From an uncultured Gemmataceae bacterium (GTDB taxonomy: Bacteria; Planctomycetota; Planctomycetia; Gemmatales; Gemmataceae), in NCBI GenBank assembly GCA_963750165.1, contig CAVVPN010000004.1, positions 448,001 to 512,000 of the forward strand: DNA of 64,000 bases. Direction: 5' to 3'. A program made the position numbers and the translations under genes. This document shows, piece after piece, positions 46,479 to 54,887 of this stretch. Each line of letters starts with the position of its first letter. The first letter of the stretch is position 1. The notes under the pieces were generated by a model, which saw only the letters and a list, made by a program, of their open reading frames with translations, searched no databases and was not told the DNA's origin.

Positions 46479-46553
46479 ATCCACAGATGACACAGATAAC
46501 ACAGATGAAAACCAGCTCTGTTTTCATCTGCGTTATCTGTGTCATCTGTGGAT
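46479..46553. repeat. Inverted repeat (ACACAGAT family)
   Basis: ATCCACAGATGACACAGATAACACAGATGAAAAC and its near-perfect complement. Confidence 0.8.
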
Positions 46554-47908
46554 TTACTCCTGGGTGAATTTTTTCTTCCGCAACAGGTGATGATAATGTT
46601 GCGCGAAGCGATGGGCCTCGTCGCGCACCGACTGCAGCAGCCGCAGCGCCGCCGCGTGCCGGCTCAGCCGCAGCGGCTCCGTCTCGCCGGGTCGGAACAC
46701 TTCCTCCTCGCGCTTGGCCAGCGATAGCAGCACCGGCGGCTCGACGCCCAGGATGCGGAAGGCGTCCAGCGCCGCGTTGAGCTGGCCCTTGCCGCCATCG
46801 ATCAGCAGCACGTCCGGGAAGACCTGCTCCTCCTGTGTCAGCCGCTTGAAGCGCCGCGTCACCACCTCGCGGATGGACGCGAAATCGTCGATGCCCTGCA
46901 CCGACTTGATGCGGTAACGGCGGTAGCCCGGCTTGAACGGCAGGCCGTCGATGAACGACACCAGCGACGCCACCATCTCGTCGCCGCCGAGGTGGGCCAC
47001 ATCGATGCCCTCGATGGTCCGCGGCGTCTGCGCAGGCCGAGCACCTTGCGCAGGCCCGCCAACCCCTTCTTCGGGTCGATGCGGAACACCTCCGGCTGCA
47101 CATCGCGGTCCACATCGCCGCGCAGCGACAGCTTCTGCAGGGCCGCGATCTCGTCGCGCAGCCGGGCCGCCTTCTCGAACTGCATGGCGGCGCTGGCCTC
47201 CAGCATCTGCTGCTCCAGCTCGCGGAACAGCCGGTCCTTCTTGCCCTCCAGCACCAGCCGCAGCGACCGGATCTGGCGGCGGTACTCCTCCCGACTGACG
47301 CGGAAGTTGCACGGCGCTGTACACTGGCGGATGCTGTGCAGGATGCACGGCCGGAACCAGCGCCAGCGCGGGTCCTCCTCGCGGATGTCCAGCGAACAGG
47401 TGCGGAACTGAAAGATGCGCTGCAGCACCTGAATGACGGCCCGCAAACTTTTGGCGCTGGTGAACGGCCCGTAAAGCTTGACGCCACGGCGCCGCGGCGT
47501 GCGCGTGAACTCGACGCGCGGGAACTGTTCACGAGTGCGAATCTGTAAATATGGGAATGATTTGTCGTCCTTGAGCAGCATGTTGAAGCGCGGTTGCGTG
47601 TCCTTGACAAGGCGCGCCTCCAGCAAGAGGGCGTCCACCTCGGTGGGCGCTTCAAGGAAGTCGATGTCGGCGATGACCTTGACGAGGTCGGCGGTGCGCT
47701 GGTCCTCGGTGGCGGCTTTCGTGAAGTAATGGCCGGCGCGGTTGCGGAGGTTCTTGGCCTTGCCGACGTAGACGACGCGGCCCTGCTCGTCCTTCATGAG
47801 ATAGACGCCGGGGCCGGTCGGGAACTGCTTGACCTTGTCCGCGGGGCTGAGCTTGTCGGCGACGGGCGGGGTGGCCTCCGGCGGAATGGGGGGCTCGGCG
47901 CTGGACAT
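46554..47908 (-). CDS. uvrC: Excinuclease ABC subunit C (short form, no C-terminal HhH); 1-nt frameshift near 47033
   Basis: GIY-YIG (PGVYLMKD..YVGKAKNLR), UVR domain (FEKAARLRD), RNase H-like (IEGIDVAH, LIDGGKGQL, RDEAHRFA). Confidence 0.9.
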
Positions 47909-48026
47909 GGGACACCTTTCCTGCGGGCGGTCACTCGTCGGCGGGCCAGGGCGCAGGCGGCCGGTCGTCGGTCGGGCGCAGGTTGGGGCGCGGCTTCGGC
48001 GTGCCGGACCGGCACGAGGTCGGCCC

Positions 48027-48119
48027 TCAGCCGCGGTCGCCGCTGTAGCGGATCGCCAGCCAGGCCGCCACGACGGTCAGGCTGCCCACCAGCCAGGGGC
48101 CGAACGTTTCCCAGAGCAT
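48027..48119 (-). CDS. 30-aa single-TM small protein (not in ORF track)
   Basis: GAGGTG RBS, ATG; MLWETFGPWLVGSLTVVAAWLAIRYSGDRG*; GC-rich third positions. Confidence 0.6.
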   Translation of the reverse strand: MLWETFGPWLVGSLTVVAAWLAIRYSGDRG

Positions 48120-48155
48120 AAGCGCACCTCGGCGGACCGATGTTCACTACCCGTT

Positions 48156-48185
48156 ATCGTAGCGGTTGTGGCGCGGTAAAGGCAA
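48156..48185 (-). promoter_or_regulatory. Putative sigma-70 promoter for small ORF-uvrC-surE
   Basis: TTGCCT-N18-TACGAT on the minus strand. Confidence 0.5.
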
Positions 48186-48227
48186 GGACGCGGCCGGTTG
48201 ACATGGGTATGTCAACCGGCCGCGTCC
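48186..48227. terminator. Hairpin downstream of TIGR03118 gene
   Basis: 19-bp perfect arms GGACGCGGCCGGTTGACAT / ATGTCAACCGGCCGCGTCC. Confidence 0.65.
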
Positions 48228-48252
48228 GCTCCGTTCCCCGGTCGCTCCTCCA

Positions 48253-49803
48253 TTAACCCAGGTCGCAGCCACCGCCGTGTCGCTGGAGTTGGGCGAGCTG
48301 TTCAAAGAAGGTATCGATGGACTGCAGCGTCGCCCCGCCCTGGTCGCTGCTGCCCTGGTAGAAGGTGTGGGTGTCTCGGAAGAACGCGAGTTCGGCGACT
48401 GCCAGGTCGCCGATGGCCGTGTTCAAGGTCTGGCTGTCCAGCCGCAGCGTGGACGACGGCGCGCGGCTCGTGACATCGCTGATGACGGTCAGCACGTCGA
48501 GCTGGACCACGTCGAGATCTGCCTGCACCGCCTGCGCCGGGGCGGAACCTATCGGGGTGCCGGCGGCCACGGCCGTCAGCGAACCGAACAGGCCGTGGCT
48601 CTCGTGGTCGAGCCCGGCGGTGAAGTACACGGTCTGGCTGTCGCCGCCGTTGCCGCCGTTGCCCACCTTCAGCCCCCACAGCCCGTCGATCTGCAGGGGG
48701 TGGCCGCTGGGGTCCGTCAACTGCCCCATCGGGGCGCCCGTGGTGGCGTTGTAGGCGTTGATGTGCCCGTCGCCGAAGTTGCCCACGAGCAGCGTGCCGG
48801 CGAGACTGCCGAAGCTCGACGGCGCGATGGCCAGTCCCCACGGCGAATCGAGCGCGCCGCCCGAGACCAGGCGCTGCCCCCCCGATCCGTCCAGGTTGTA
48901 CACGTCCACGAAGCCGCGGCCCGGCCCGGCCGCGTCGTCGTGTTTGGCGGCATCCTGCTTGGCGTAGGTGACATAGACCTTGCCGTTCAGGACTTGAACG
49001 TTGAAGGGGGCGTAGCCGTGGGGGAGGTTCGGGTCGGTGAACGCGCCGCTGGGCAGCGTGACCTTGGTAAAGTTCGGGTCGTACACCTCGATCTTGCCGG
49101 AGCGGAAGTTGGAGACGTACAGCACGGTCGTACTGCTGGGGTCGGCCGCGAAGATCGGCGTGGCGTTGCTGGCGATGCTCAGGCCCTTGTAGACTGCGCC
49201 CGTTTGCCGGTCGGGATTCGGCTGGGTGAAGTTGTTGCCCGAGTTGTCCACGGCGATGATGCCGTAGGTGCCGGCATTGGCCGGGTTGAACCCCTGCGGG
49301 TTCACGCCGGGGTTCCAGCCGACGATGGTGCCGTCCTCGGTGGCGAACAGGAAGACCGACGCGGCCGAGGTCGGGGCCGGGGCTCCCGTCGTCGGGTTGG
49401 TGAATCCGGAAACCTTGAACCCGCCCATCGCGCCGCCGTCGATGTTGAAGACGGTGCCGCTGGGGGTGCCGCTGGACCCGAACGGGTCGCCGGGCGTCGG
49501 GATGCTGACGACCAGGCTGCTGATCGATAGCGCGATCGGCGGCGTCTGGCCCGGGTTGGCGCTGTAGAGCGTGGACTTGCCCGAGCCGTTATCGGAGAGC
49601 CAGAACGGGCTGCCGCCGCTTTCAGAGATGCCCCAGGGATTTACCAGGTTGGGGTCCTGAAGTTGGGCCACGCCGGGCAGATCGGACACCAAATTCGTTT
49701 GCAGCACGTTGGCGTCCAGCAGGCTGCGCGCTTCCAGCAACTCCAGGGCCGGGCAGAACGACGGGGCGGGGCGGCGGCGCAGGCGCACCGGCGCTTGAAC
49801 CAT
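48253..49803 (-). CDS. TIGR03118-family secreted protein with planctomycete export signal
   Basis: RRR..LELLEARSLL signal; QTNLVSD, DPNLVNPWG, FATEDGTI, YKGL, YAPFNV, LLVGNFGDG, IDGLWGL, HGLFG. Confidence 0.9.
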   Translation of the reverse strand: MVQAPVRLRRRPAPSFCPALELLEARSLLDANVLQTNLVSDLPGVAQLQDPNLVNPWGISESGGSPFWLSDNGSGKSTLYSANPGQTPPIALSISSLVVSIPTPGDPFGSSGTPSGTVFNIDGGAMGGFKVSGFTNPTTGAPAPTSAASVFLFATEDGTIVGWNPGVNPQGFNPANAGTYGIIAVDNSGNNFTQPNPDRQTGAVYKGLSIASNATPIFAADPSSTTVLYVSNFRSGKIEVYDPNFTKVTLPSGAFTDPNLPHGYAPFNVQVLNGKVYVTYAKQDAAKHDDAAGPGRGFVDVYNLDGSGGQRLVSGGALDSPWGLAIAPSSFGSLAGTLLVGNFGDGHINAYNATTGAPMGQLTDPSGHPLQIDGLWGLKVGNGGNGGDSQTVYFTAGLDHESHGLFGSLTAVAAGTPIGSAPAQAVQADLDVVQLDVLTVISDVTSRAPSSTLRLDSQTLNTAIGDLAVAELAFFRDTHTFYQGSSDQGGATLQSIDTFFEQLAQLQRHGGGCDLG

Positions 49804-50024
49804 TTCATCATCGGTCTCTCCTTGAAACGGGGTCATGAGTGGCCCACGACAGAGGGCTGCCCGGGGCGCGCGGGCTCCCAGGGCTGCGGGAGTTCGCCGC
49901 CGGTCAACACCGTCCTTGTGGGCAGAAAGAGTTCCTACACCGCCACGGTGTAGAAAAGGGGCCGTACACAACGAGGAAGGAAAAGGTCAACGCGCATGAG
50001 CCGCAATGGCACGCTGCGTCGGTC

Positions 50025-50957
50025 TTAATGGCACTTGCTTCCACCCGAAAAGGGAGGCGTCCAGCCCGCCGGCGCGGTCAAGGAGGGCCAGCCGGCTCCC
50101 CAGACGTGGTACGCGAGCAGGGCGCTGGCCAGCAGGGCCAGGAGGGCGGCCAACCCGAAGCCCCACGCCCGGCGCGTCCAGGTTCTCTGGGCGAGCGCCC
50201 GCAGGATTTCGTCCGCCACTTCCGCGACGGGGGCGGAGACGGCCGCGGCGCCGTCCGCCGCATAACGGACCGCGGCCCGGGTGGTGGCCTCTGCCAGTCG
50301 GCCCGGCAGGGCCGGCCGCGCGAAGAACAGCAGGGCGGGCAAGCCGCAGGCCAGGGTTAGCCCGCGGTGCGCCAGACGCTTCCGGAGGAGGCCCCGGGCC
50401 CGGTCCAGCCGCCAGGCCATCGACCCCCGTGGGCAACCGACGATGCCGGCGGCCTCCTCGTGCGTCCGGCCTTCGAGGTAACAGAGCACTAACAGAATCC
50501 GATACCGCTCCGGGAGTTGGTTCAGCTCCTCGTTGAGGATCGCCAGAACTTCCCGGTTGTCTTGCTCGTCTCTGGCCTCGAGGTTTGGCATACTCGCGAC
50601 CTGTTGTTCTCGTGCTTTGCGGCTCGCCGCCCGGCCCCGAACGCGCAGAGCCGCCCGGTGCGCCACCCCGTAAAGCCAGTTCCCAAGTAGCTCGGGCCGG
50701 TCGAGCGATCCGGCCTTGCGGGCGAGGACGAGGAACGTGATCTGGAAGGCGTCCTCAGCGTCGTTCAGATCGCCGAGCACCCGGCGGCACACGCCGAGGA
50801 CCATCGGGCCGTGCCGCGCCACCAGGGCCCCGAAGGCGTCCTCGTCCCGGCTCGCGGTGAAGCGTTGCAGGAGTTCGCAGTCGCCCGGCTCCTCGCCCGC
50901 TGCCCGGCAATCTGCCCGGCGCGGCTTCCCGATTGAGCGATGGGTTCCGTTCATCAT
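50025..50957 (-). CDS. ECF sigma-70 factor with C-terminal TM extension
   Basis: ELLQRF..DEDAFGALVARHGPMVLGVCRRVL..DAEDAFQITFLVL; LPERYR..CYLEGRTHEEAA; hydrophobic tail. Confidence 0.9.
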   Translation of the reverse strand: MMNGTHRSIGKPRRADCRAAGEEPGDCELLQRFTASRDEDAFGALVARHGPMVLGVCRRVLGDLNDAEDAFQITFLVLARKAGSLDRPELLGNWLYGVAHRAALRVRGRAASRKAREQQVASMPNLEARDEQDNREVLAILNEELNQLPERYRILLVLCYLEGRTHEEAAGIVGCPRGSMAWRLDRARGLLRKRLAHRGLTLACGLPALLFFARPALPGRLAEATTRAAVRYAADGAAAVSAPVAEVADEILRALAQRTWTRRAWGFGLAALLALLASALLAYHVWGAGWPSLTAPAGWTPPFSGGSKCH

Positions 50958-51035
50958 GTTCCAGCCTCCGAACTTGTCCCAACCCTCGCCCTAATACTCC
51001 CGCGCCAGGGCCGCCCAACTAAGGTTTTTTTCCAG

Positions 51036-51323
51036 GACGGCAACGCTGGCTGGACAGTGACGCGCCAGCACATCTATACAAGGAATCGCCGCGAGCATCA
51101 ACAGGTGCAGGCATTCCGGGCCGCCGTCAAGCGTCACTACAGCGCGGAGCCCGACAAGGTGGCTTGCAACGACCTCATCACTTCGGAGCAGAACCTGGTC
51201 ACGGTCGTGGGCGCTTACCTCACCGTGCGCGGGCTGCAGTGGCAGGCGGTCGTGGACATGGCCGGCCTGCTGCAAACCGATGAGCTGTTCCAGGGAGCGG
51301 AGCGCTTCCAGAAGGCTGAGTGA
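51036..51323 (+). pseudogene. Probable 3' fragment of an unidentified gene
   Basis: Coding-like codon pattern (GNAGWTVTRQHIY...AERFQKAE*) without a clear RBS/start; 5' side abuts the ECF upstream region. Confidence 0.35.
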
Positions 51324-51380
51324 GGGCTATGGGATCGCAATGGAATTTGGAAGGTGTAACGGCAACAAGTCGCATCGTAG

Positions 51381-51451
51381 TTCGGGGAGAAGGAGTCGAA
51401 CCTTCACGCGCAGATTCAAAGTCTGCGAGCCTACCATTAGCCGATCCCCGA
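51381..51451 (-). tRNA. tRNA-Gln(TTG), no encoded CCA
   Basis: Cloverleaf TCGGGGA / GGCT-AATGGTA-GGCT / GCAGA-CTTTGAA-TCTGC / GAAGG-TTCGACT-CCTTC / TCCCCGA-A. Confidence 0.9.
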
Positions 51452-51464
51452 ATTGTTGTTCCAG

Positions 51465-51536
51465 CTGCGGTGGTAGGAGTCGAACCTACACTCATCTCCT
51501 TAACAGGGAGCCGCCTTACCGTTAGGCCACACCGCA
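51465..51536 (-). tRNA. tRNA-Asn(GTT), no encoded CCA
   Basis: TGCGGTG / GCCT-AACGGTA-AGGC / CTCC-CTGTTAA-GGAG / GTAGG-TTCGACT-CCTAC / CACCGCA-G. Confidence 0.9.
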
Positions 51537-51571
51537 ATAGCTATAGCACATCAGCGAACCAACCGCGAAGT

Positions 51572-51613
51572 AATAAAAAGAGCCAGGCGTCTGGGGTCGA
51601 TGACGCCTGGCTC
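51572..51613 (-). terminator. Intrinsic terminator/attenuator 35 nt upstream of tRNA-Asn
   Basis: GAGCCAGGCGTC-N10-GACGCCTGGCTC-TTTTTATT. Confidence 0.85.
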
Positions 51614-51644
51614 CGGGAAACACTTCCGGGGGAAGGAAGTGGGG

Positions 51645-51692
51645 TCACCACCGCTCGGGGTTCATCAGGGGTTGATTTTGATTACCGAACAT
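51645..51692 (-). CDS. Putative leader peptide MFGNQNQPLMNPERW
   Basis: ATG TTC GGT AAT CAA AAT CAA CCC CTG ATG AAC CCC GAG CGG TGG TGA; stop 31 nt before the terminator; weak RBS. Confidence 0.55.
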   Translation of the reverse strand: MFGNQNQPLMNPERW

Positions 51693-51761
51693 AATCTTCG
51701 CCCACTGGTCCGCTGTCGTTTTCGTCTCACCCTTTCAGGACGCGCGGCGTCCACACCAGGT

Positions 51762-53258
51762 TCACGCGAAAAACGCGCTGGCTTGCGCTGCATTTTTCGC
51801 GGCCTCCTCCGTGCGCTGCGCCAGCGCCCGCAGGCACTGCTCCTCTAACAGATGTCGGCTGCCGCGCAGCACCGGATGCTTCGCCACCACCGCGGCCCGG
51901 AGCGCCTCACGCTCGTCCTCGGTCAGCGCCAGCCAGGGCGGCTCCCAGGCGGCGCGGAACTGCTGCTCCTCCGCCTTCTCGCGCGCGAACGCCTCTTGCT
52001 CGCGCCGCTGCCGCTCCTGCTCCTGCTCCTTGCGCTGCTGCCGGCCCTGCTGCGCTGCCGCCGCCTTCAGCGCGTCGGCCCAGTATTTTTGCACCGCGCC
52101 GCTGAACGACCGACACTCCGGCCACTCCTTGCGCAGCACCTGCACCAGCAATGGCAGCAGCGCCTGTAATGGCTCGGCGGTCTGCGTCCGCAGCAGCGCC
52201 TGCGCCTGCTCCAGGTCGCGCGGTCCCGGTTGCGCGACCACGCTGTCCGTCCACAGTTTGTAGAAGCAGCGCACCAGGTCGTGCGCCGCCTCGGTGAACT
52301 CGGGCGGCGCCGGTGGCGGAGCGTCAGGCGGCAAGCCGCAGACAGCGGGCTCGCTCGGTTCGGCAATTTTTTCCGCCGGCGCTTGTTGAACGGCCTGGAA
52401 GTGGACGCGCCAAACGCCCGCCTGCACCTTCTGGAAGCGCTCCGACAACGGCGCCTTTGCCAGAAAGCCGACCTCCTCCAGTTCCAGGATCGCCGGCAGC
52501 AACCGCCGCTTCAGGATCGCAACGTTGTCGCTCTCCGTCAGCCCGACGTGGCCACAGGCGAACTCGATCAGGTCCATCGACAATCGCGGCGTGTTGTAGA
52601 AGCGCTTGTCCAGAAAACGGTACATGCGCTGGGCAGTCGGCGTCCGCAGCGCGAAAAACAACTCCAGGTTCAGCCGTTTGATGTTGCCGTTCTTCAGACT
52701 CTCGTGAAACTGCGGCGTCCAGGTCACCCAGCTCAACGGCGTCGCGCCCGCCTTCTTCGGGCCGCTCACCTGCCGGGCGATCTTGTACGCGCTGATGACG
52801 CCGGTTGCCAGTTCCTCCTCGTAACTGCGGCCGGCGGCATCCCACCAGGCGTTCTCATAACGGATGTTCAACGACTTCAGCCGCCGCAGCACACCGCGCA
52901 GCCGTTCGTAACTGCGGCCGTTCGGCGCCCAGTGCATGATGTCGAACAGCTGGCTCGGACAATAATGCACCACAGGATCGACGAAGTTGGTGCTGTGCTT
53001 GGCGACCCACAGCAGCGCCAGGATCACATGCTCGTCGGCGGGCGTCGGCAGGCCATCCTGCGCCTGCGTCGTCAGCGTGACGCGCTGCGTGACGCGCTGC
53101 CGCGTCTTCGCGTCCAGCCGGCTTGACTCGTAGACGATGCTGTCGAGCTTGCGGCCGGCCGCGTCGCTTGGCTGCTGTCGCTGCAGGATCGAAATCGGAA
53201 AATCCGCCAAATTCATTTCATCGCGACCGTCCTGGTACGTGCGCTTCAGATTCGGCAT
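51762..53258 (-). CDS. Plasmid-type replication initiator protein (RepA/RPA-like)
   Basis: GRDEMNLADFP, GLPTPADEHVILAL, NGRSYERLR..LRRL, YENAWWD, PTAQRMYRFLDKRF, LKRRL.PAILELEEVGFL. Confidence 0.8.
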   Translation of the reverse strand: MPNLKRTYQDGRDEMNLADFPISILQRQQPSDAAGRKLDSIVYESSRLDAKTRQRVTQRVTLTTQAQDGLPTPADEHVILALLWVAKHSTNFVDPVVHYCPSQLFDIMHWAPNGRSYERLRGVLRRLKSLNIRYENAWWDAAGRSYEEELATGVISAYKIARQVSGPKKAGATPLSWVTWTPQFHESLKNGNIKRLNLELFFALRTPTAQRMYRFLDKRFYNTPRLSMDLIEFACGHVGLTESDNVAILKRRLLPAILELEEVGFLAKAPLSERFQKVQAGVWRVHFQAVQQAPAEKIAEPSEPAVCGLPPDAPPPAPPEFTEAAHDLVRCFYKLWTDSVVAQPGPRDLEQAQALLRTQTAEPLQALLPLLVQVLRKEWPECRSFSGAVQKYWADALKAAAAQQGRQQRKEQEQERQRREQEAFAREKAEEQQFRAAWEPPWLALTEDEREALRAAVVAKHPVLRGSRHLLEEQCLRALAQRTEEAAKNAAQASAFFA

Positions 53259-53269
53259 CGCTTGATGGT

Positions 53270-53801
53270 GGGTGAGAATTTTCGATAAGTCAAAAACACA
53301 CTGACTCACTATTCCAACGTCGGCAGCGCTTCGCAAGAGAGTTTGCGGTTTTGGTGTGGGTTTTCTTCTTTCCGTTTTGGTTCTGGTTTACGCACGGCGC
53401 TTGCACGCCGTAAAGTCTGAAATAAGTGGGACTTGTTAAGATTGGTCCGAGCTGAACTGTGCGCGGTCGCACGGGGATCGGGTGCGCCGCCGCACGCGGA
53501 CGGGCCGGAAAACGTGCCGCCGCCGCACGGCGACGGAATGCGCGACTGCACGGGAACAGCCGCTAAAAGGTGCGCCGCCGCACGGGGATTCGGCTGCGTT
53601 TTTCCTGCGCGGCGAAATCAGACATGATTTCGGGGCTGCGCAGCTGCAGCGCAGCTGTAAACGAGCCCGATGCGCAGCTGCGCCGGCCGCCAACCATCAG
53701 CCGGGGCGGCTCATCGACAAAGATCCACGATCATCCGCGCACATTTTCCGGGGACGGGCAGACGCCGCTCAACGCAAGTTCACGATCCACCGCGCACATT
53801 T
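53270..53801. other. Putative iteron-type replication origin / Rep operator region
   Basis: AT-richer tract 53270-53450; five TGCGC-N4-GCACG(G/C)(G/C)(G/A)A-like repeats 53459-53588; two 21-mers at 53726 and 53781. Confidence 0.6.
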
Positions 53802-53803
53802 CA

Positions 53804-53897
53804 GGAGGCGCCGAACAACAACTTCGTAGGACGGCTCTCCAGAGCCGTCGGGACGGCTCTGGAGAGCCGTCCTACGAAGTTGTTGTTCGGCGCCTCC
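53804..53897. repeat. REPIN-like perfect palindrome (same REP as the 40-kb array)
   Basis: 46-bp perfect arms, 2-nt loop, containing GTAGGACGGCTCTCCAGAGCCGTC. Confidence 0.9.
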
Positions 53898-53904
53898 ATA
53901 GCGA

Positions 53905-54678
53905 TCAGCGGCGCGACAACATCGAGCCGAAGATGATCGCCCCCAGTGCCAGGAAAATCAGCAGAAAGATACTGGTCGAAATGCTCAGGAACCACGTCGC
54001 GGTGTTGTTCTCCGGCGTCTCCAGCTTCGCCAGCGCCCGGCCCAGCTCGCGCTCCACCTCGGCACGCAGCGCCGGCGCGAAGACACGCCAGTGCAATGTT
54101 ACGTGGAACAGCGCCGGGAAGGCGTCCAGCTCCACGACGGCCGGCTCGCTCAATCCGAGCGTGGTAGCCGGGCGCGGCGGCGTGGCGGTGATGGCGGTGT
54201 CGTCGGCACCGACGGCCGCCGCCGCCGGGCTGGCGACCTGGATGGTGTAGCGGTCGCCGACCCGGCTGGCGCTCAGGCCGAGGTGCTCCAGCGTCTCCAG
54301 GAAGGTGCGTTCGAGTTCCTCCGGCTCGACGTTGTAGACGACGGTGCTGCGGCCGCGCCACCAGAGCAGAAACGCGCCGCCACCCAGCACCACCAGGAAG
54401 TAGAACAGCCAGATGCCCCACCACAGCGACCAGATGTCGTGCAGCGTCTGGCCCGGCGACGGCCGGCCGAAGGAGAACTCGAACAGGTTGCGATGATACT
54501 GGCCGCTGAGGACCGCCGGGCCGACCACCAGCAGGAAGCCGGACGACGCGAACAGCAGACCGACGAAGTCCCACGCACCGTTGACCATGAGCGGCCGCAG
54601 TCGGCGGTTAATCAGGCCGAGCACGCCACAGTAGACGCCGATGGGGAACAGGAAGACCGCGAGCAATAGGAGAAACAA
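53905..54678 (-). CDS. Hypothetical membrane protein
   Basis: Three N-terminal TMs, a soluble domain and a C-terminal TM. Confidence 0.75.
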   Translation of the reverse strand: MFLLLLAVFLFPIGVYCGVLGLINRRLRPLMVNGAWDFVGLLFASSGFLLVVGPAVLSGQYHRNLFEFSFGRPSPGQTLHDIWSLWWGIWLFYFLVVLGGGAFLLWWRGRSTVVYNVEPEELERTFLETLEHLGLSASRVGDRYTIQVASPAAAAVGADDTAITATPPRPATTLGLSEPAVVELDAFPALFHVTLHWRVFAPALRAEVERELGRALAKLETPENNTATWFLSISTSIFLLIFLALGAIIFGSMLSRR

Positions 54679-54829
54679 CGGCGGCTCCTCGACAGGGGAG
54701 GTTCGACCCGGCCGACCGGGTAAGACACGTATTCTATGCGGCGGTGCGGGTTAGGGTCAATCAGCGGTCACAAGCGCGCTTGACGGGGCGCCCGACGACG
54801 GCTACAAGGCGCGGCCTGATTTTCCGTGA

Positions 54830-54887
54830 GGCAGACAGGAATGTCTGCCCCACGGAAGAACGGCAGACAGGAATGTCTGCCCCACGG
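54830..54887. repeat. Direct pair of GTGG-type REPs
   Basis: GGCAGACAGGAATGTCTGCCCCACGG at 54830 and 54862. Confidence 0.8.

Follow-up and report, generated by a model that had tools for sequence, protein, structure and literature searches.

We analyzed a stretch of 64,000 nucleotides (nt) from an uncultured Gemmataceae bacterium (contig CAVVPN010000004.1 of GenBank assembly GCA_963750165.1, forward-strand positions 448,001 to 512,000), here called the window, in which a short open reading frame (ORF) and a terminator hairpin precede two transfer RNA (tRNA) genes, tRNA-Asn(GTT) and tRNA-Gln(TTG), on the minus strand. With a probability of roughly 0.6, this element belongs, as a short representative, to a conserved class of ribosome-mediated leader-peptide attenuators that stand before horizontally spread, supernumerary tRNA arrays. 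The evidence comes from 73 homologous elements, in which we observed a common anatomy and its conservation, the covariation of two alternative RNA pairings, and a match between the composition of the leaders and the tRNAs of their arrays.

A conserved leader and terminator precede tRNA arrays

The homologs were recognized when the DNA upstream of the first tRNA gene in the arrays of relatives, and of a 16-tRNA array elsewhere in the source genome (contig C10), was found to contain a hairpin resembling that of the window. The shared hairpin consists of GGCCNGGYGTC, a loop, GAYRCCNGGCC, and a run of T immediately before the arrays, and about 33 nt farther upstream lies a conserved ...CTTGTGACGCC. 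We found this pattern in 74 of the 252 genomes searched within the taxonomic family, compared with 3 for its reversed control. At 75 of the 99 hairpin places examined, a same-strand tRNA gene lies no more than 150 nt downstream. Of the remaining 24, four have the upstream motif with tRNAs 220 to 295 nt away, two are beside arrays in the opposite orientation, and the others look like ordinary terminators. After extension of the loci, we obtained 73 distinct elements, including that of the window, from 58 genomes and 38 genera. The arrays behind them hold 1 to 33 tRNAs (median, 10), and 62 are complete. They follow one layout: a promoter-like motif, an ORF of about 32 codons, a UGA-C stop within the antiterminator strand, a small hairpin, the terminator, and the tRNAs. 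A pattern applied across the phylum (TGACRCC...GGYGTC...RAYRYCNGGC) was found in 12 of 400 other genomes, where most matches look like coding sequence, and was rejected as a search tool; it gave no match in the source genome itself, whose copies read TGACCCC or TGACATT. The sequence family seems to be largely confined to the family and order searched.

Conservation of the leader ORF, named as a check in the original prediction, was borne out. A stop codon lies 27 to 46 nt before the hairpin (mode, 33) in all 73 elements and is TGA followed by C in 70. An in-frame ATG giving 26 to 50 codons is present in 70 of 73 elements, compared with one and two in the other two frames, and leader lengths peak sharply at 32 to 33 codons despite very divergent peptides. 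Many leaders end in x-P-L-R-L, a C terminus whose codons vary synonymously (CCA, CCG, or CCT for Pro; TTG, CTG, or CTT for Leu; CGC, CGT, or CGG for Arg). A Shine-Dalgarno (SD)-like GGAG, GAGG, or AGGA precedes 32 of 71 chosen starts, compared with 3 of 71 at a control place, and such a motif also stands before 23 of the 49 leaders that have a single candidate ATG. We regard this as moderate support for the leader ORF.

The bipartite motif GAACY-N15/16-CGTC occurs upstream of 60 of 70 leaders, at a median of 55 nt before the ATG, and in none of 70 reversed controls. We take it to resemble the promoters of extracytoplasmic function (ECF) sigma factors, with AAC at -35 and CGT at -10. The first tRNA begins no more than 20 nt from the hairpin core, T-run included, in 42 of 73 arrays (median, 17 nt). 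These arrays therefore leave no room for a separate promoter, and transcription must pass through the hairpin.

Terminator and antiterminator pairings covary

We aligned the 73 elements with MAFFT and compared each proposed helix with slid registers. The terminator core, of 11 pairs, is paired in 98.9% of cells, compared with 30 to 44% in slid registers, and in three of its pairs both partners vary. A run of at least four T lies within 20 nt of the hairpin in 59 of 73 elements. The alternative helix joins alignment columns 13 to 21 (consensus TTGTGACRCC, stop codon included) to columns 66 to 74, which comprise the 3' half of the terminator 5' arm and the first bases of the loop. Its nine pairs are formed in 91.3% of cells, compared with 21 to 50% when slid, and its informative pair is A-U in 37 elements, G-C in 26, G-U in 4, and another combination in 6, with which an anchored count agrees. 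Across the alignment, both the terminator and the antiterminator pairings covary. The original prediction had noted, from the window alone, that the segment over the stop codon can pair imperfectly with the terminator 5' arm, and this extends to the whole set: in the window, 8 of 9 positions pair around a single internal C-C mismatch.

We also folded the nascent RNA up to the terminator loop. The minimum-energy fold retains at least five of the six core antiterminator pairs in 69 of 73 elements, and the median energy of the nascent antiterminator fold is -23.5 kcal/mol, compared with -27.3 for the finished terminator. A small hairpin of at least 4 base pairs (bp), at the position called P1 in the window, is predicted in the spacer of 68 of 73 elements, with variable sequence. 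The arrangement that had been described for the window as the geometry of ribosome-mediated attenuation is, as predicted from sequence, conserved in the aligned set.

Leader composition follows the tRNAs of the array

We compared leaders with their own arrays in 27 representatives that are less than 35% identical to one another and precede complete arrays, leaving out 44 of the 71 leaders. Single-linkage clusters at 40% identity had chained 51 of the 71 leaders into one and were replaced by these greedy representatives. The fraction of leader residues served by a tRNA of the leader's own array is 0.636, compared with 0.477 ± 0.019 under permutation, and the fraction of leader codons readable by the array's anticodons is 0.518, compared with 0.332 ± 0.019; none of 20,000 permutations reached either value. 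Nineteen representatives below 30% identity gave the same result, and with coarse clustering, the observed match exceeds the expected one in 15 of 18 clusters. Synonymous choice points the same way. For amino acids that an array covers only in part, 43 of 57 leaders favor codons that suit the anticodons of the array (0.642 compared with 0.565; Wilcoxon P = 6e-6, with rows that are not independent).

Individual leaders make the correspondence plain. L147 precedes 14 tRNAs (G Q L Y E L Q R T C N S I V), and its leader, after Met1, is composed of exactly those 12 amino acids. The leader of L063, before a Ser-Leu-Ser array, has 14 Ser and 7 Leu among 34 residues. Leaders L141 and L122, whose arrays read P S G E H T C S W G I V, are rich in S, T, G, C, H, and I. 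The sole Arg codon of L156 is AGA, and its array carries tRNA-Arg(TCT). Arrays that start Asn-Gln-Gln-Lys-Phe-Gly/Pro-Arg have leaders such as MTGFIKQPRNPQRPQPQGCGFGFGRFNRPGQFPNRFRNQIRIQTG, and about a dozen arrays headed by Asn-Gln follow leaders rich in N, Q, F, G, P, and R. One of the other elements, L153, also serves only tRNA-Asn(GTT) and tRNA-Gln(TTG), with a 30-codon leader that contains four Gln and two Asn. Four leaders (L094, L052, L033, and L066) are exceptions without an own-array excess. The idea that the window element senses amide nitrogen found no support. Leaders elsewhere mirror whatever tRNAs follow (Ser/Leu, Pro/Ser/Thr/Cys, and others), and the putative sensor therefore concerns decoding or tRNA supply in general.

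The window element

Direct reading, ARAGORN, and Rfam confirmed the order of parts that had been proposed for the window, from an ORF of 15 amino acids through a GC-rich hairpin and a U-tract to tRNA-Asn(GTT) and tRNA-Gln(TTG) (Table 1). The window copy is in register with the other elements throughout, with the promoter-like motif, an ATG at a typical distance (47 nt after CGTC), the TGAC stop, P1, the hairpin, and the U-tract. The GAACC half of the promoter-like motif overlaps the stop codon (51764-51762) of an upstream RepA-like gene. The leader runs from ATG (51692-51690) to TGA (51647-51645) with a weak SD-like element, GAAG, and the stop lies 35 nt before the hairpin. P1 is placed between the antiterminator strand and the terminator, whose arms, GAGCCAGGCGTC and GACGCCTGGCTC, form a perfect 12-bp stem, or 13 bp with a G-U pair (-25.7 kcal/mol). 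A simple terminator scan that allowed loops of 3 to 8 bases missed this hairpin because its loop has 10. The spacing from the U-tract to tRNA-Asn is 35 nt, and that from the hairpin core is 44 nt.

The leader region folds more stably than its shuffles (z = -4.6), and the minimum-energy fold includes a hairpin inside the ORF. In the same fold, an imperfect complementarity of about 19 nt between 51552-51570 and 51700-51719 brackets the leader-terminator unit. An Rfam scan of 49000-54000 placed only the two tRNAs above threshold and gave no T-box match at E ≤ 1. A search of sequencing runs for this DNA listed no RNA run; its one entry was a DNA run from a soil metagenome that shared 5% of the words. 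A match to the small RNA Scr3202 over the hairpins was below threshold (28.7 compared with 52 bits), and we took it to reflect likeness to a terminator.

Table 1. Features of the window element and related features of the source genome
Feature	Position	Strand	Details
Promoter-like bipartite motif	51739..51763	minus	GAACC 51763-51759, 16 nt, CGTC 51742-51739
Leader ORF, 15 codons + TGA	51645..51692	minus	encodes MFGNQNQPLMNPERW; read from sequence
Antiterminator strand (region 2), GGTGACCCC	51641..51649	minus	holds stop codon; alternative partner, terminator bases 51607-51599
Small hairpin P1, 7 bp	51621..51641	minus	CACTTCC / 7-nt loop / GGAAGTG; -8.4 kcal/mol
Intrinsic terminator, stem + TTTTTATT	51572..51614	minus	5' arm 51614-51602, 3' arm 51591-51580, U-tract 51579-51572
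tRNA-Asn(GTT), supernumerary	51464..51536	minus	ARAGORN; Rfam tRNA 66.2 bits
tRNA-Gln(TTG), supernumerary	51380..51451	minus	ARAGORN; Rfam tRNA 56.5 bits
Sigma-70-family gene	50025-50957	minus	regions 2 and 4; PHROG "RNA polymerase sigma factor"; directly downstream of tRNA pair
Leader-plus-terminator unit L150	contig C10:88560-90180		before 16-tRNA array, same genome
Leader-plus-terminator unit L151	contig C11:2270561-2271120		before 5-tRNA cluster Lys, Pro, Ser, Cys, His

The codons after the leader ATG are TTC GGT AAT CAA AAT CAA CCC CTG ATG AAC CCC GAG CGG TGG. Codons 4 to 7 are AAT CAA AAT CAA, a tandem AATCAA hexamer that yields the peptide NQNQ, and codon 11 is AAC. As had been proposed, the leader holds codons cognate to the tRNAs that follow. 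Asn and Gln make up 5 of its 14 residues after Met1, compared with 11% in the pooled leaders, an excess with P = 0.015 against the pooled leader composition and P = 0.003 against a crude proteome proxy (7.7% N+Q). By itself, given the number of windows scanned, this excess is suggestive but weak, and it is because of the comparative data that we regard the match as more than chance. Its Asn/Gln share of 36% is the highest among leaders of arrays that begin with Asn (14 to 28%), a difference that is not significant over 14 residues. The amino acids of which these Asn-first leaders are built (F, G, N, Q, P, and R) account for ten of the 14 residues. The leader begins MFGN. L154, the element before an Asn-Gly-Gln-Gln-Lys-Phe-Pro array, has an in-frame ATG 32 codons upstream of its stop, and the ORF read from there starts with MFGN too; the SD-guided start chosen for L154 was a later ATG (MLQFF...).

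Genomic context and origin of the tRNA pair

The source genome comprises 9.6 Mb with 66% G+C and 97 tRNA genes, and it holds three elements of this type: those of the window, of the 16-tRNA array on contig C10, and of the 5-tRNA cluster on contig C11. The leader of the last (L151) is enriched in the rare residues C and H. A second tRNA-Asn(GTT) and a second tRNA-Gln(TTG) are present in the genome, with sequences quite unlike those of the window copies. The other tRNA-Asn, on contig C11, differs from that of the window, whose nearest relatives are in tRNA arrays, and the window tRNA-Gln resembles the tRNA-Gln of the C10 array. A DNA search of 40 relatives matched the tRNAs only, within arrays of up to 29 tRNAs. 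The nearest relatives of both tRNAs are members of arrays of 10 to 29 tRNAs, and Asn is directly followed by Gln in several arrays of relatives. By these relationships, the pair is best described as a remnant or mini-array of supernumerary tRNAs and, with two tRNAs only, not as a long array. The U1-A72 pair to which the original prediction had drawn attention is present in both window tRNAs; it is not distinctive, as the housekeeping tRNA-Asn and tRNA-Gln of the genome have it too.

Upstream of the leader, a 524-amino-acid ORF weakly matches Replication initiator protein A (PF10134, E = 2e-7), and a sigma-70-family gene and then a GIY-YIG/UVR gene lie downstream of the tRNAs. The RepA-like initiator, a 572-amino-acid ORF of unknown nature, the sigma factor, and the GIY-YIG/UVR nuclease-like gene stand in a row at 46859-53336 on the minus strand, adjoined by the core genes cyclophilin, dnaX, and rpoN from 55763 onward. 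This row is probably an integrated plasmid-like element. We considered a link between the neighboring sigma-factor gene and the leader promoter and found it unsupported, as tblastn detected no homolog of the gene in the other 72 array loci.

Several repeats lie in the same region. A palindromic repeat of about 100 nt at 53800-53900 has dozens of copies dispersed over all large contigs of the genome, and Rfam matches to MIR4374 and mir-9236 there, on both strands, are false matches to this palindrome. Short, partly palindromic repeats of about 65 to 75 nt (46479-46553 and 54822-54887) have many genomic copies at 75 to 92% identity. Just downstream of tRNA-Gln, 51100-51309 recurs at 86% identity in this genome (contig C12:856134-856344); the ORFs that overlap it (50940-51323 on the plus strand and 50991-51275 on the minus strand) gave no Pfam or PHROG match.

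Proposed mechanism and alternative explanations

We infer from this anatomy that the leader is translated, in which direction the switch would work, what part the weak stop may play, and what the physiological trigger would be. Transcription would start at the GAACC...CGTC motif, some 45 nt ahead of the leader ATG, and a ribosome would translate the leader. With fast decoding, the ribosome would reach the UGA-C and cover the antiterminator strand, so that the terminator forms and transcription stops at the U-tract, short of the tRNAs. Because UGA-C terminates translation weakly, a prolonged stay of the ribosome on that strand may be part of the design. If the ribosome instead stalled at the AAT, CAA, or AAC codons (4 to 7 and 11) for want of cognate tRNAs, the antiterminator strand would stay free and capture the 5' arm ahead of synthesis of the 3' arm, and the polymerase would continue into tRNA-Asn and tRNA-Gln. 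The geometry is compatible with both outcomes: a ribosome whose A site holds one of codons 4 to 7 would reach to within about 10 nt of 51649-51641, and one at the stop would cover this strand. Poor translation in general would likewise leave the strand free. The circuit would thereby act as a supply-on-demand loop for spare tRNAs.

A number of observations weigh against an active attenuator in the window. Its leader, at 15 codons, is the shortest of 71 (the others have 26 to 50). Its nascent fold, at -17.1 kcal/mol with three of six core pairs, is weaker than that of 69 of the 72 other elements. The -10-like half of its promoter motif reads CGTCCTG, compared with the common CGTCTAT. The hairpin core is 44 nt from the first tRNA, compared with the median of 17, and the 35 to 44 nt between the U-tract and tRNA-Asn may house a private promoter; a scan for consensus promoters detected none. 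The Asn/Gln richness of the leader may have been inherited from Asn-first leaders rather than tuned to the pair. Exact copies of the leader were found neither elsewhere in the source genome (blastn) nor in the 40 relatives (DNA search) nor in a phage collection; a pattern for its N terminus gave seven hits in metagenome contigs and two in genome contigs, all unrelated and without a tRNA within 700 nt. At equilibrium, the window terminator has a predicted probability of about 0.999 under every ribosome mask. In classical attenuators the terminator likewise wins at equilibrium and the switch is kinetic, and we therefore set mask folding aside as a test and used nascent-RNA folds. Kinship among the 73 elements also inflates the statistics given above, an effect that the use of representatives lessens and does not abolish.

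Much of this would be expected if the class is real and the window copy is a decayed relic, with a truncated array, a leader shortened by deletion, and a weak antiterminator, so that termination is constitutive or the tRNAs depend on another promoter. Leaders can outlive their arrays, since that of L152 has kept its composition after its array shrank (as seen against L147). Such a relic is possible, but we consider it unlikely. No part is broken or out of register: the ATG and the open frame behind it, the TGAC stop, P1 and the 12-bp terminator, both perfectly paired, and the tRNAs, which score high. The C-C mismatch (TGACCCC) is shared with L150, the C10 unit of the same genome, and is therefore a lineage variant and not private damage. 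The Asn/Gln codons are 20 to 30 nt upstream of the antiterminator strand, a spacing at which a ribosome stalled on them would not block the strand, and L153, the other array of Asn and Gln only, has a full-length leader. The window copy may nonetheless be partly decayed, and its switching range may be small, since no leader of the class is shorter and few of its antiterminators are weaker.

Two further explanations do without codon sensing. The small ORF could be a conserved micropeptide gene, or have some other role, with the hairpin as its terminator and a constant low readthrough into the tRNAs. The x-P-L-R-L end and UGA-C context, conserved in many leaders, could reflect a function of the peptide. 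The conserved 3' end of the ORF is, however, exactly the strand that pairs and covaries with the terminator arm, and its conservation is thus explained at the RNA level. Apart from that end, the leaders differ greatly in sequence yet keep their length and position, and their composition tracks the array at the amino-acid, codon, and synonymous levels. We hold a micropeptide to be improbable. A chance arrangement, in which a random ORF lies in the 3' untranslated region of repA, the hairpin serves only to end repA transcription, and the tRNAs form an unrelated unit with a promoter of their own, is very improbable and already contradicted by the comparative data. The hairpin does share the strand of repA and lies about 150 nt beyond its stop, the Asn/Gln excess of the window considered alone reaches just P = 0.003 to 0.015, and NQNQ stems from a tandem hexamer. 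Yet the whole unit, from the promoter motif to the U-tract, aligns with 72 elements that precede arrays without an adjacent repA.

The repA neighborhood itself speaks against this chance arrangement. RepA-like orthologs are present in 56 of 266 other genomes of the order. We examined 19 repA loci from other genomes, one of which has no stop codon within the locus; 18 have downstream sequence, in one case only 70 nt. A leader or hairpin of the window type, or a co-directional tRNA, follows repA in none of these 18, and the DNA 3' of repA is unrelated to the window leader in all of them. A hairpin that merely ends repA transcription, named in the original prediction as a refuting case, also accords poorly with the promoter-like motif that the leader has of its own. 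By this comparison, the leader element travels with tRNA arrays and does not belong to repA. Convergent tRNA arrays were observed just downstream of repA in 4 of the 18 loci.

Relation to known systems

Leader-peptide attenuators are known for trp, his, leu, thr, and pheA, for the multivalent ilvGMEDA and thr leaders, and for pheST. The attenuators of amino-acid operons share with our elements, as we read them, a short translated leader with cognate codons, an intrinsic terminator followed by the regulated genes, and a mutually exclusive antiterminator whose upstream strand is covered by a ribosome at the end of the leader. Their multivalent leaders sense several amino acids, as the leaders here would. 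The present elements differ in that the regulated genes are tRNA genes and not those of enzymes or synthetases, which would place the loop on tRNA supply and not on amino-acid synthesis. The leaders also list up to a dozen or more amino acids in place of runs of one codon, and the stop codon (UGA-C in 70 of 73) lies inside the antiterminator strand. T-box riboswitches resemble the elements as cis-acting leader RNAs that sense the state of one particular tRNA by codon-anticodon recognition and have a terminator/antiterminator switch. They bind uncharged tRNA without a ribosome and control synthetase and amino-acid genes, whereas the elements described here contain an ATG-to-stop frame of conserved length.

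PMC8421152, which defines long tRNA arrays (L-arrays), counts Planctomycetes among the phyla in which they occur and shows that the trn operon of Anabaena PCC 7120 is induced under translational stress through promoter repeats. TrcR is the repressor of the Anabaena tRNA array (PMC10272220). As far as these accounts go, the Anabaena array and L-arrays resemble those described here in being supernumerary and horizontally spread and, on the reading proposed here, silent by default and wanted when translation falters. Control in Anabaena is exerted at the promoter by a DNA-binding repressor, in contrast to the leader ORF and terminator/antiterminator switch proposed here. The words attenuat*, leader, and terminator do not occur in the main text of PMC8421152 or PMC10272220. 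Full-text literature searches, with most subscription journals and supplements outside their scope, found no published leader-peptide attenuator before tRNA genes. Nor did the literature searched offer support for an attenuator-like leader before the E. coli tRNA-Phe genes pheU and pheV.

Implications

When bacteria and mobile elements express their spare tRNA arrays is a largely open question, with one studied case, Anabaena, in which a promoter repressor is responsible. We favor the reading, about as probable as that given for the window element at the outset, that this planctomycete family gates horizontally acquired tRNA arrays by "roll-call" leaders of about 32 codons, each naming the amino acids, and for the most part the codons, of its tRNAs, such that an array is transcribed only when decoding of its cognate codons is slow, with the window element as a minimal two-tRNA version. 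An alignment of 73 elements with two covarying helices and a shared promoter-like motif makes this testable by simple reporters.

If this reading is true, a leader written in the codons of its own array would be a direct, self-contained gauge of decoding capacity, and a textbook mechanism would be extended from amino-acid supply to tRNA supply. It would offer a handle on the stress of tRNA depletion, as caused by anticodon nucleases, foreign DNA with mismatched codon usage, or translation inhibitors, and a compact programmable part in which altered leader codons would alter what is sensed. The Asn/Gln unit of the window would be evidence that the switch remains useful, or at any rate persists, after an array has shrunk. 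For the bacteria that carry these arrays, the roll-call leader unit would work as an inbuilt sensor of scarce or damaged tRNAs and as a homeostat of the spare set.

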